Origin: Eledone cirrhosa
Lineage: Eukaryota
NCBI GenBank assembly: GCA_964016885.1
Contig: OZ024741.1
Location: 151,776,001 to 151,840,000 of the forward strand
Direction: 5' to 3'
DNA: 64,000 nt
Part shown: piece after piece, positions 504 to 51,056 of the stretch
Layout of the letters: each line of letters begins with the position of its first letter
Numbering within the stretch: position 1 is the first letter of the stretch
Program-made: the position numbers and the translations under genes
Notes under the pieces: model-generated
What the model was told of the DNA's origin: nothing
Database searches by the model: none
The model's input: the letters and a program-made list of their open reading frames with translations, nothing else

Positions 504-1027
504 ATATATATATATATATATATATATATATATACATATACATATCGAAATATATACATGTTTATATATATATATATATATCGAAAATATTCTTAGAAGA
601 AATGTGTACATACCGTAATTATATCTCTTACGGTATGTACACATTTCTTCTAAGTTTAATTTTACACCTAATTGTGTATGGTTGATGATATATTTAGTCA
701 GTTTCCACATGGTGTCGAAATGTTGGACAAATATACTATATTGGGGCCACCGCGAAGAGGCCACTTTTGTTTATTTGTCGAAGATTTCTTCATAAGAGCC
801 TTTTTTCTTATAGCTTGGTCTAATTGATTTTTTATATGGTTAATTATGCTAATCGGAAGAAGAAACGGTATATATTTTATCTAATCATTCTAAAGACATG
901 ATTTATGATATTTATATATATATATTTATATATATATATATATATATATATATAAAGAAAAAGAGATGAAATCGAAAATGCAACTGGAGTCTTATTTTTA
1001 AAAATAAATATATATATTTATTTGGTT

Positions 1028-1065
1028 CCTTTACCGGTTTCGCAGTTCTTCTGCTTTTCAAAAGG
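1028..1065 (-). ncRNA. Minimal type I hammerhead ribozyme, U3-A8 core variant
   Basis: Reverse complement reads cctt TTGAAAA gcag-aagaa-ctgc GAAA CCGG TA aagg. Confidence 0.75.
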
Positions 1066-1574
1066 TGAATTGTGATGGAGGGTCTGTGGTTTTTCTCACA
1101 TCTGGTTGGTCTCTGAATGTTACTTGTTTTATATGGAAAAAATGGCTCGAAATGCCAGGTTTTTCGAGAAGTAATTTGATTGGTTTGTCAATAATTATAA
1201 TAAATTTCGCGCCAGTTCGCGTTACAATAGTTCTTCAAATAAGAGGGGGGGTTGTCACAGGTTGTTTTTTTCATATATGAGTGTTTGAATTTCTTTTTAC
1301 AACAAAAAAAGCCTTCGTGAGCCCCTTTTTTCAAGTAAAAAGAAATTCAAACACTCATATCTGAAAAAACAACCTGTGACAACCCCCCCCCCCCCTCTTA
1401 TTTGAAGAACTATTGTAACGCGAACTGGCGCGAAATTTATTATAATTATTGACAAACCAATCAAATTACTTCTCGAAAAACCTGGCATTTCGAGCCACTT
1501 TTTCCATATAAAACAAGTAACATTCAGAGACCAACCAGATGTGAGAAAAACCACAGACCCTCCATCACAACTCA

Positions 1575-1612
1575 CCTTTTGAAAAGCAGAAGAACTGCGA
1601 AACCGGTAAAGG
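1575..1612 (+). ncRNA. Minimal type I hammerhead ribozyme, U3-A8 core variant
   Basis: Stem I cctt/aagg, core TTGAAAA, stem II gcag/ctgc, GAAA, palindromic stem III CCGG, GUA cleavage triplet. Confidence 0.75.
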
Positions 1613-46697: not shown

Positions 46698-49600
46698 TAT
46701 AAAGAAAAAGAGATGAAATCGAAAATGCAACTGGAGTCTTATTTTTTTTTTAAATATATATATTTATTTGGTTCCTTTACCGGTTTCGCAGTTCTTCTGC
46801 TTTTCAAAAGGTGAGTTGAGATGGAGGGTCTGTGGTTTTTCTCACATCTGGTTGGTCTCTGTTACTTTTTTTATATGGAAAAAGTGGCTCGAAATGCCAG
46901 GTTTTTCGAGAAGTAATTTGATTGGTTTGTCAATAATTATAATAAATTTCGCGCCAGTTCGCATTACAATAGTTCTTCAAATAAGAGGGGGGGGGGGTTG
47001 TCACAGGTTGTTTTTTCATATATGAGTGTTTGAATTTCTTTTTACTTGAAAAAAGGAGGCTCACGAAGGCTTTTTTTTGGTTGGTTATAAATGAAATTAT
47101 GGCTGTCACGTGAACAAGTTTTCATTAAATTTTTGTGCCCTTATTTGGAAATCCATTCTGTAGCCTTTTTAGAGAATTTTTTGATAAGTGAAAGATAATA
47201 GTCAAGAGAAAGGGATGGGAGAATTGTTCTGGTTCAGTGAATATGGTTAGTTCGCTGGGGTGTCAGAATTCAGATTTTCTATTGAATAAAGAAAGTAAAG
47301 ATATGTATGTTTATTTGTGTTCTTGTGTGTGTGTGCGTGTGTGTGTGTGTGTGTTGTGTGTGTGTGTGTTTGAATTTCTTTACTTTAAAAAAAGGTGGCT
47401 CACGAAGGCTTTTTTTTAATAAACGTGATTTGATTGGTTATAAATGAAATTTGGCTGTCACGTGAACAAGTTTTCATTACATTTTTACGCCCTTATTTGG
47501 AAAACTATTCTGTAGCCTTTATAGCGAATGTTATGACAATGGAAAGATAGTGGTCAAGAGAAATGGGATTGGGAGATTTGTTCTGGTTCAGTGAATATGG
47601 TTAGTTCGCTGGGGTGTCAGAGTTCAGATTTTCTATTGAAGTGAAGATATGTATGTTTATTTGTGTGCTTGTGTGTGTGTATGTGTGTGTGTGTGTGTGT
47701 GTGTGTGTGTGTGTGTGTTTGTGTGTGTGTGTCTGTGTGTGTGTGTGTGTGTGTGTATTGGAAGATGATTCTATTAGTAGAAACGGGGGAGGGAGTTGTG
47801 TGTGTGTGTATATGGGTGTTATGTGTGTGTGTGCGAGTATGTTAAGATGGAGAGAATATATATTTTGTGTGTGTATATATATGTGTGTAGGAAAGTGGTT
47901 CTATTAGTAGAAATGGGGAGGGAGTTGTGTGTGTGGGAGTATGGTTAGCATGTTAAGATGAAGAGAATATATATATATTGTGTGTGTGTCTGTGTGTGTG
48001 TAGGAAAGTGATTCCTTTAGTCGGAATATTTTTGAATGAACATATTTTCCTTACTTATTCGTATTTGTTGTTGTATTGTCAGTACAAACGTATGTTAAGG
48101 TTTATTTAGTTCGGGTTTTTATTTTCTAAAGTAGAAGGTGTTATGTGTGTGTGTGTGTGTGTGTCATATTATGGTGTTGACATAATGTATATTAAACCAT
48201 ATTTAATGTTGGTCTATATTTTTGAATAAACATATTTTCCTCATTTATTCGCATTTGTTCTGTTGTATTGTTAGCGCAAAGGTAAAATGGGAAGACTTGG
48301 AATTTGGGTGTCTTATTACTTGCGCAAATGTCTAGATGTGCACTTAGTGGTATCTGTCTCGTGGTTGGATCTCGTAATTGTTGGCGATGAACTGTCATTC
48401 TGTTTCTGAGTGTGAGTTTAGTTTGTCCTATATAATCTTCTTTGCATCCTTTACATTTAATGGCATAAATTAGATTTTTTGATGAGCAAGTGAAGTGATT
48501 TTTTACAGTAAAATTTTGTCCTGATTTAAATGTATACGTGTTGCCTCAAATGAGGTGAGTGCAGGTTCCACAATTAGAGCGACCACATTTTTTGATACTT
48601 GGTTGTGGGTTTGTGGTAGGTAATTTGGCATTGGTGAGTAATGTTTTCAGTGATTTTGGTTGTCTTTTGCTTTTGATTATTTTGTGTGTTTCAAGGGCTT
48701 TTTTTCATTTTGGGTTTTGTTTTAGTAGTGGGATGTTATTGTGAATAGTGTTGTAAGCTTCCGCATTTCTTGGGTTGTGTGTTGAGATATATGATAGAAT
48801 ATTGGACGTACCTTGAATTTGTTTCTGTTTCCGTAATTCATCAATGCCTATTGCTTTAGCCCTTTCTATTCCATTATTTATTAGTAATAGTGGGTACTCT
48901 CTCTCGAGTAGAATTTCCTTTAATTCTTGAAGTCTTTTATTTCGCGTTTCATAATTGGAGACAATTGTTCAAATTCTTCTTGCTAGGTTAAAAGGAATGT
49001 TCGTCTTCGTGTGCTTTGGATGGTTGGAGGTGAATAGCAGATATTGTTTGGAATCTGTTGGTTTGTAGTGTATGTCAGTTTCGATATTTGTGTCTTTTTT
49101 TAAGATTAAGATGTCCAGAAATGGGAGTTGATCTTGGCTGTATTCCATTATGAATTGGATGTGGTTATTGATGCCGTTTATTAAGTTTTTGAAATCCTTC
49201 AGTTGGTCGAGTGTGTGGGACCAAAGAATGAGGCAATCATCCAAGTAGCGTTTCCAATTCTCTGATAAATATTTGTGGAAGTTCAATCCGTATTTTGATT
49301 TGGACTGTTCATATATCTGGAATTCTAAGTATGCCATGACTAAGTTGGCATAAGTTGGAGCGGCTTTTGTACCCATCGCAGTCCCCGATATTTGCTTGTA
49401 AGTATTGCCATCGAAATAAAAAAAGTTGTTCTGTAGGATGAATTTTAATCCCTCGGTGATGAAGCTTTTTTCTATTCTGTCAGGTATCTCATTGAGATAT
49501 TTCTCTAGCCAGAATCCTATTGCTTCTAGTCCGTATTGAACACCCATATACACACACACACAAGTCCCTCCCCCATTTCTACTAATAGAATCATCTTCCA

Positions 49601-50793
49601 ATACACACACACACACACACACACACACACACACACACACACACACACACACACACACACACACACACACACACACACACACACACACACACACACACAC
49701 ACACACAAACAGACACACACACAAGCACACAAATAAACATACATATCTTCACTTCAATAGAAAATCTGAACTCTGACACCCCAGCGAACTAACCATATTC
49801 ACTGAACCAGAACAAATCTCCCAATCCCATTTCTCTTGACCACTATCTTTCCATTGTCATAACATTCGCTATAAAGGCTACAGAATAGTTTTCCAAATAA
49901 GGGCGCAAAAATGTAATGAAAACTTGTTCACGTGACAGCCAAATTTCATTTATAACCAATCAAATCACGTTTATTAAAAAAAAGCCTTCGTGAGCCACCT
50001 TTTTTTAAAGTAAAGAAATTCAAACACACACACAACACACACACACACACACACACACACACGCATACACACACAACACACACACACACACACACGCATA
50101 CACACACAAGCACACAAATAAACATACATATCTTTACTTTCTTTATTCAATAGAAAATCTGAATTCTGACACCCCAGCGAACTAACCATATTCACTGAAC
50201 CAGAACAATTCTCCCATCCCTTTCTCTTGACTATTATCTTTCACTTATCAAAAAATTCTCTAAAAAGGCTACAGAATGGATTTCCAAATAAGGGCACAAA
50301 AATTTAATGAAAACTTGTTCACGTGACAGCCATAATTTCATTTATAACCAACCAAAAAAAAGCCTTCGTGAGCCTCCTTTTTTCAAGTAAAAAGAAATTC
50401 AAACACTCATATATGAAAAAACAATCTGACAACCCCCCCCCCCCCCCACCCCCCTCTTATTTGAAGAACTATTGTAACGCAAACTGGCGCGAAATTTATT
50501 ATAATTATAGACAAACCAATCAAATTACTTCTCGAAAAACCTGGCATTTCGAGTCACTTTTTAGTAACATTCAGAGACCAACCAGATGTGAGAAAAACCA
50601 CAGACCCTCCATCTCAACTCACCTTTTGAAAAGCAGAAGAACTGCGAAACCGGTAAAGGAACCAAATAAATATATATATTTTTAAAAAAAATAAGACTCC
50701 AATTGCATTTTCGATTTCATCGCTTTTTCTTTATACTTTCACTCGTGTAGGACACCTCGGTTATTTTTCATTTTGTAAAAAAACCCTCACTTT
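46697..50793 (-). mobile_element. 5'-truncated Penelope-like element (Neptune-like) with 3' pLTR (46697-48190) and inverted pLTR copy (49541-50793)
   Basis: RT/EN remnant in the centre. 49541-50735 is the reverse complement of 46697-47820. U3-A8 hammerheads at 46774-46811(-) and 50622-50659(+). Confidence 0.92.
48192..49540 (-). pseudogene. PLE reverse transcriptase plus GIY-YIG endonuclease, single frame with three TGA stops
   Basis: FILQNNFFYFDG..YKQISGTAMGTKAAPTYANL; WKRYLDD; LPFLDI; YKPTDSKQYL.F.S.HP.H; C..SNCGTC; NLIYAIKC.GC...YIGQT...LRNR...H; E..FIQKY.P.LN. Confidence 0.92.
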
Positions 50794-50867
50794 AGAAAGT
50801 GAGGTTTTTTTATATATTCATATATATATATATATATATATATATATATATATATATATATATATAT

Positions 50868-51056
50868 AATATAGAAATGGCTTCTACAGGACTAGAACTG
50901 GTTCATTCGGAGGAAATCATCAGGGTACCTGACTCAATGTAATATGGTGGTATTTATATGGGGTATAAATTACACCATATTACATTGACAGTCGGCTTTC
51001 CTGGTGATTTTCTCCGAATGAAACAGTTTTAGTCCTGTAGAAGCCATTTCTATATT
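50868..51056. mobile_element. Foldback of a decayed hammerhead-bearing pLTR-like repeat
   Basis: atagaaatggcttctacaggacta / tagtcctgtagaagccatttctat. Left arm reverse complement has CTGATGA tttc..gaat GAAC; right arm has CTGGTGA tttt..gaat GAAA CAG. Related to 21280-21340. Confidence 0.6.

Follow-up and report, generated by a model that had tools for sequence, protein, structure and literature searches.

A 64,000-nucleotide stretch of the Eledone cirrhosa genome (assembly GCA_964016885.1, contig OZ024741.1, positions 151,776,001 to 151,840,000; hereafter the window) carries Penelope-like elements (PLEs) and non-coding retrozyme arrays with hammerhead ribozyme motifs, many of them as twin insertions whose two arms point away from a central joint. 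Here we show that this divergent architecture is real, genome-wide and far from random, and that the outer ends of the arms obey a counting rule: one arm stops at a fixed internal site, A, and the other at a second fixed site, B. The architecture and the element classes are known, but the quantitative one-A-one-B rule is new and points to coupled two-ended priming on one RNA. On this sequence evidence we favour, at a probability of about 0.7, coupled target-primed reverse transcription in which a PLE protein uses both ends of the target break to copy a single, often circular RNA.

The rule was read most fully in an array family with a 310-bp unit, counted through the 3.0-Gb assembly with exact sequence patterns for the unit core, the A-end junction and the B-end junction. 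In the genome, the core is matched exactly 5507 times. Arms in the first eleven stretches examined ended about 130 nt (A) or about 165 nt (B) past the hammerhead cut site, with one such end per arm, and the junction patterns returned 1245 A ends and 1245 B ends genome-wide. All 62 divergent pairs in the first 218 Mb of contig 1 combined an A end with a B end, 33 in the order BA and 29 in the order AB. Of 20 ends sampled from the 68 left unpaired, 15 proved to have an opposite-type partner whose end was a variant, and the other 5 belonged to single-armed insertions; by extrapolation, about 85–90% of insertions in this family are twins. The same pairing was found in the family of PLE pseudo-long terminal repeats (pLTRs), where A lies at about +80 and B at about +143 and 15 of 17 twins among 22 distinct loci were A+B; the other two were atypical, and none was AA or BB. 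Full-length coding PLE copies were A+B in 12 of the 12 cases with both ends seen (20 fetched). A retrozyme family with a 593-bp unit (A at about +76, B at about +243) gave A+B in 7 of 8 twins among 22 sampled insertions, and a mini-element family named after its window copy at 3622 gave 5 of 5, two of these being one duplicated copy. Folding of sites A and B revealed no common structure. The B ends of four families (window positions 1753, 2644 and 61407, and site B of the 310-bp family) share (C/T)AAT before the TA tract, three of them as CTAAT, possibly a recognition or annealing motif.

Orientation was equally regular outside the window, so the random or convergent arrangement that would have undone the sequence-only reading was not seen. 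In three families, with the first 100 core matches taken from each, neighbours on opposite strands and at most 1.5 kb apart were divergent in 23, 12 and 16 cases and convergent in 0, 0 and 1, a total of 51 divergent pairs versus 1 convergent. The only convergent pair seen (L194:1300-1980; L-numbers denote sampled genomic loci) belongs to a large mirror duplication centred on a TA tract, with flanking DNA included.

Both arms of a twin also carry the same variants. Of 63 pairs scored, 8 were too short; in the 55 with at least 250 shared positions, the majority haplotype was the same in both arms at 51, versus 14% between loci. The sampled insertions comprise 22 haplotypes, and 10 loci have a variant that is fixed in both arms and found at no other sampled locus. 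At L075 a variant is fixed in up to 24 units, which calls for a one-unit bottleneck such as a circular monomer gives; we infer a circular monomer template on the basis of the variants fixed in all units only. At L070, three linked sites switch past the two outermost units in both arms, which are 3 and 17 hammerheads long. The change is in register from the outer ends; it requires either a mosaic template common to the two arms or a switch made in concert. Together, the A+B rule and the shared haplotype argue that the two reactions were coupled on one RNA. The initial proposal that both ends of a (TA)n break prime independently and that the two cDNAs are then joined thus keeps its two-ended priming and its joining, but "independently" conflicts with 62/62 A+B pairs and with the 51/55 shared haplotypes.

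A shared haplotype excludes randomly drawn RNAs, but not sister RNAs. Two RNAs of one haplotype, from one source locus or a multimeric transcript, could each prime one arm, with the A/B rule set by an asymmetric protein dimer. Such dual priming, proposed for L1 (PMC2837659), would give A+B ends and unequal arms without two reverse transcriptases (RTs) on one small circle, and two copies of a single mosaic transcript would yield L070. We nevertheless consider it unlikely, given the 10 loci whose private variant is fixed in every unit of both arms and the lack, at any locus, of two cleanly different arms, where random RNAs would match in 14%. Alternatively, arms from unrelated templates or events might have been homogenized by gene conversion between inverted repeats. 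At L037, L038 and L049, one arm has variants repeated in units scattered along it, which indicates some post-insertion exchange, but conversion would have to fix variants over at least 20 units while 43 of 47 unit variants stay unshared, and it does not produce the A+B rule; we regard it as very improbable.

At the inner joint, each locus was compared with its own unit (L042 was excluded and the duplicated L054 counted once). Inner ends in the 310-bp family are uniform over the monomer (p 0.44) and symmetric to within 15 nt in 4 of 65 insertions versus 6.5 expected. An insertion sits at the junction in 19 of 65, and at least 2 nt of overlap in 29 of the other 46, versus 18.5% expected. Either arm can be the longer: in 30 of 65 the A arm equals or exceeds the B arm in length. 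Target duplications of about 12–15 nt were read at L035 and L211, where the target is not pure TA; in pure TA targets they are unreadable. Truncation at the hammerhead cut site was rejected as a source of inner ends in this family (5 of 130, versus 7.1 expected, no enrichment); a few PLE arms do end at it.

These joints bear on the second mechanism raised at the outset, in which a single cDNA folds back and copies itself until the copy stops at a TA-like site, close to the published self-priming model (PMC3846280). Site A has TA-like bases in three families, as a snap-back would use, and in the window array of the 310-bp family and at L098 the inner units of one arm match the other arm. However, the centres of the 310-bp arrays are asymmetric, either arm may be longer, the L070 register counts from the outer and not the inner ends, and the copy of an A arm has no cause to halt exactly at B. 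Snap-back is refuted for the 310-bp arrays, but possible for short symmetric palindromes, to which we return below; as a general account of the twins it is a shade less credible than the sister-RNA scheme. L1-style twin priming on one linear multimer, hinted at by the window array with its left arm stopping near A, was likewise rejected, because the inner ends are uniform. With snap-back and random RNA pairs excluded for the 310-bp family, its multi-unit arrays serve as a tape record of template use, and about 1200 young insertions in one genome discriminate between models.

In the coupled reaction that we favour, the PLE protein would make a staggered cut of both (TA)n strands, leaving two 3'-OH ends. 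One 3' end would prime at A and the other at B on a single bound RNA, probably through a protein dimer, and the two priming events could be concurrent or sequential. Each RT would run through uncleaved hammerheads, in the arrays mostly by repeated passage round a circular monomeric RNA accompanied by strand displacement, after which the cDNA 3' ends would be joined by microhomology or end-joining; failure of the second end to prime would leave a copy with a single arm. Antisense cDNA extending both 3'-OH ends gives exactly a minus arm on the left and a plus arm on the right. We put forward more tentatively, at a little under even odds, that PLE integration is normally symmetric, with a dimeric RT–endonuclease engaging one RNA at two fixed sites and two RTs running round the same circular retrozyme RNA. 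If so, a single mechanism would explain how hammerhead satellites are born, why the pLTR is inverted and why only one side has a tail, and each event would lay down a pair of satellite arrays, up to 10 kb in size, that point outward. The coupled reaction makes exact predictions for the in vitro system already available: A on one strand, B on the other, one template.

The window itself has a GC content of 31.6%, is rich in (TA)n and contains one 200-N gap; self-BLAST showed that inverted duplications crowd it. A relaxed type I hammerhead descriptor that permits a U3:A8 core, a variant known from PLE hammerheads (PMC4209133), found 11 motifs in the de-duplicated window (47.6 kb) versus 0.37 per shuffle. 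Rfam at gathering scores gave 0 matches in the window, and a strict CUGANGA scan misses several insertions of the earlier list. Each unit of the 310-bp and 593-bp arrays carries one type I hammerhead by the shuffle-controlled descriptor scan, and the units are non-coding (GC 0.34 and 0.43; longest ATG frames 30 and 78 amino acids, respectively). The elements are as follows, with a strand where the entry is a single arm.

953..1753: twin PLE pLTR insertion, minus arm ending at site A, plus arm ending at site B, tail of about 63 nt
1061-1032 (minus) and 1579-1608 (plus): U3:A8 hammerheads of the 953..1753 twin, found by descriptor
1804..2644: older retrozyme-like family, 79–81% like the 310-bp unit; divergent arms meet at a short TA run
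3084..3531: twin absent from the earlier list; hammerhead-like motifs at 3193 (minus) and 3320 (plus); only the right arm has a tail, of about 100 nt
3553..3887: twin mini-element of the 3622 family; B tail on the left minus arm, right arm ending at A
3704-3659 (minus) and 3803-3848 (plus): complete hammerheads of the 3553..3887 twin
4666..4851: twin mini-element; perfect hairpin centre, a hammerhead 3' half in each arm, right arm with a tail of about 77 nt
21198..21341: twin of the 50868 family, absent from the earlier list; tail on the left arm only
21703..23283, minus: B arm of the 593-bp retrozyme array; 2.7 units, 3 hammerheads with U3:A8 core and extended helix II
23284..27066, plus: A arm of the 593-bp retrozyme array; 6.4 units, 7 hammerheads
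30974..41496, minus: left arm of the 310-bp retrozyme array; 34 units, A end
41500..42886, plus: right arm of the 310-bp retrozyme array; 4.5 units, A end, T at hammerhead position 7
45073..45230: decayed inverted pair; arms 81% alike, partial hammerheads, adjoining the assembly gap and not flanked by (TA)n; right boundary approximate
46700..49540, minus: 5'-truncated broken coding PLE arm; pLTR hammerhead at 46807, RT, CX4CXXC linker, GIY-YIG at 48195-48545; A end; inner limit approximate
49541..50793, plus: inverted PLE arm; 3' untranslated region and pLTR with hammerhead at 50626-50655; B end
50873..51132: twin mini-element; decayed hammerheads, arms 84% alike, tail on the right arm only
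61407..62714: second PLE family; minus arm of 87 nt ending at B, plus arm ending at A and carrying a hammerhead-like motif at 62470

The arms are divergent in all ten insertions of the sequence-only reading, as it had claimed; its minus-left, plus-right hammerheads hold less widely. Both arms have complete motifs at five (1061/1579, 3704/3803, 46807/50626 and the two retrozyme arrays, with 3 minus and 7 plus motifs at 21703-27066 and 34 minus and 4 plus at 30974-42886). At a sixth, 1804-2644, the right motif passes the descriptor and the left has an imperfect U3-G8 core, read by eye; the remaining four are partial or decayed. The tenth, 61405-62712, had been said to show the same pattern, and its arms do diverge, but a hammerhead-like motif is present in the right arm only; its plus arm has a PLE-like C-terminal frame by eye only, with no Pfam match. 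Inverted arms were found by self-BLAST at the listed spans, several of which had missed a one-sided tail and are here corrected to 3553-3887, 4666-4851 and 50873-51132 or slightly beyond. Outer ends were said to lie mostly in (TA)n, from which the 45064 pair departs. Nine of twelve window twins, including the two absent from the earlier list, fit the A+B or one-sided-tail rule; the 310-bp array and 1804-2644 do not, and the 45064 pair is unclassed.

Palindromes of this kind could be foldbacks of chimeric reads or of the assembly. At 21703-27066 every unit of both arms is identical and the junction is a hairpin with a 3-nt loop, and such a perfect centre with 100% identity is what a foldback would look like; the junction at 41497 was bridged by none of the short-read contigs listed, and the L194 mirror duplication takes in flanking DNA. 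A foldback would, however, give mirror arms, whereas the outer ends differ by rule and the inner ends are asymmetric. Old pairs are only 81–97% alike, and A-type and B-type ends running into TA occur in short-read contigs of a public run, possibly from the source sample. Of all the explanations considered, we give this one the least credence.

Several observations weigh against coupled two-ended priming on one RNA. Two window insertions break the rule: 1804-2644 has B-type ends on both arms, and the 310-bp array has A ends on both, with a 3-nt insertion at the junction. This array may have arisen by recombination between two adjacent insertions, by template switching or through a join made in assembly. 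Its left arm has A at hammerhead position 7 in the 33 outer units and T in the innermost; the arms of the array, like those of L098, form mosaics for which the simple model has no explanation. In the 593-bp family, 14 of the 22 sampled insertions are single-armed, and the A–B spacing across families, 35 to about 165 nt, reaches beyond the published tail of 30–40 nt. Arm lengths correlate weakly (Spearman 0.24, p 0.06), so the two RTs were not tightly coupled in progress. The 43 of 47 unit-specific variants noted above were unshared in the outer register, and the 4 shared ones all come from L070; unshared variants fit a circle, copying errors or later mutation, and leave one clear locus for the register argument. 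Finally, 7 of 17 PLE pLTR palindromes are near-symmetric, their centres matching to within 10 nt and often lying at about -70 relative to the cut site, and the window 593-bp, 3622 and 4664 elements also have symmetric or hairpin centres. Snap-back fits all of these, and a common stop near -70 with a quasi-palindromic overlap would also suffice for the PLE palindromes; the snap-back alternative of the initial reading thus survives there while failing for the 310-bp arrays.

The coding PLEs bear on what mobilizes the arrays. A 775-amino-acid PLE frame and the window fragments match Pfam GIY-YIG, with RVT_1 just below the cut-off, and the linker between RT and the C-terminal endonuclease (EN) reads CX4CXXC in the window copy, within the CX2-5CXXC pattern of EN+ PLEs, with Y replacing the second C in one fetched copy. 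About 30 of the 150 genomic PLE matches listed lie in a 775-amino-acid open frame, which indicates a young family. The window PLE has pLTRs with a hammerhead, an inverted truncated copy and a one-sided tail of about 63 nt; by these features it is probably an EN+ PLE of Neptune/Nematis-like type. In a full-length copy at L176:2680-6116, a 400-amino-acid open reading frame (ORF1) overlaps the 775-amino-acid RT–EN frame at a conserved U UUU UUA heptamer with -1 geometry, bases that are also readable as a 3' splice site. This ORF1 has no Pfam match; an ORF1 set off by a frameshift is known for PLEs (PMC8557442).

The sequence-only reading had named the window PLEs as mobilizers of the arrays. PLEs as a class are supported in that role because coding PLE copies follow the A+B rule (12/12). 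The claim for these particular PLEs fared less well: the 310-bp and 593-bp monomers have no meaningful similarity to the window PLEs, apart from one 33-nt opposite-strand match. The results lend mechanistic support, beyond co-occurrence, to PLE mobilization of retrozymes and to rolling-circle birth of satellites.

Most of these features have precedents. EN+ PLEs have pLTR hammerheads, (TA)n targets, short target duplications and a frameshifted ORF1, and their unit can be a head-to-head inverted, 5'-truncated copy with a tail on one arm (PMC3846280, PMC8557442). Those accounts ascribe the inversion to self-priming or leave it undefined, as PMC8557442 does for the origin of tandem and inverted PLE structures, and ascribe the tail to endonuclease resolution. 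Here, unlike there, the tail rule is counted as one A and one B per twin with the wide spacing given above, and non-coding tandem arrays obey the same end rule. The protein of the lizard (Anolis) PLE Poseidon cuts and extends both strands in vitro, with two internal start sites that define the tail, a predicted dimer and no requirement for hammerhead cleavage (PMC11167929). Two internal start sites, cutting and extension of both strands and an uncleaved RNA template would be common to both systems, here by inference from sequence. For Poseidon, the start sites showed no difference between strands and no homology to the target, and inverted arms are not accounted for in the portions consulted; in the present genome the two ends of an insertion start at different sites, most of them with 2–9 TA-like bases.

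Animal non-LTR retrozymes are tandem hammerhead repeats for which PLE mobilization via circular RNA has been proposed (PMC7229834; 10.64898/2026.07.22.740005), and the present arrays share their tandem non-coding units, single type I hammerhead per unit and low GC, under 45–50%. The 593-bp unit exceeds the 150–450 bp of PMC7229834 but lies within the 51–972 bp of 10.64898/2026.07.22.740005; a term search of the available text of these two sources for inverted or twin-arm arrays and for fixed ends or tails came back empty. Priming from both target strands is known for L1 (PMC2837659, 10.1101/2024.12.14.628481), whose twin or dual priming shares with our case outward arms, inner microhomology and target duplication (PMC2837659). 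In L1, twin priming begins at poly(A) and accounts for a minority of outcomes; its arms derive from separate, non-overlapping stretches of one RNA, and the first cDNA stops close to the site where the second is primed. The twins described here are the predominant product: their arms are copies of one shared sequence begun at two fixed internal sites, they overlap over many units, and their inner ends are uniform. The one-A-one-B rule, twin-arm retrozyme arrays and a shared template were each absent from the literature searched, older subscription reviews and supplements lying outside that search.

Other observations concern individual joints and remaining parts of the window. In the PLE pLTR family (L102–L131), both arms have inner ends that cluster near -70 from the hammerhead cut, which may mark the start of a transcript or a place where RT stops strongly. 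The junction at L042:2043-2220 has two additional strand switches that use the same 5-nt microhomology twice. At L038:3099-3370, a 272-nt GC-rich foreign sequence separates the arms of a 310-bp twin, with no match among sampled loci or in Rfam. For the 310-bp unit (window 41300-42136), 59–84% of sampled words occur in runs under 17 organism labels from 16 studies, and two other organisms each have a single 340-nt cyclic contig identical to the window unit, at a depth of 10–12 and without flanks; this may be cross-sample contamination by an abundant sequence or real sharing. Lone hammerhead-like motifs lie at 2753 (minus) and 63694 (plus). Further broken PLE-like fragments at 14871-16768 and 27573-29221 have RT and endonuclease-like frames by eye, with no Pfam match, and the second ends in a hammerhead-like motif at 29104 (plus).

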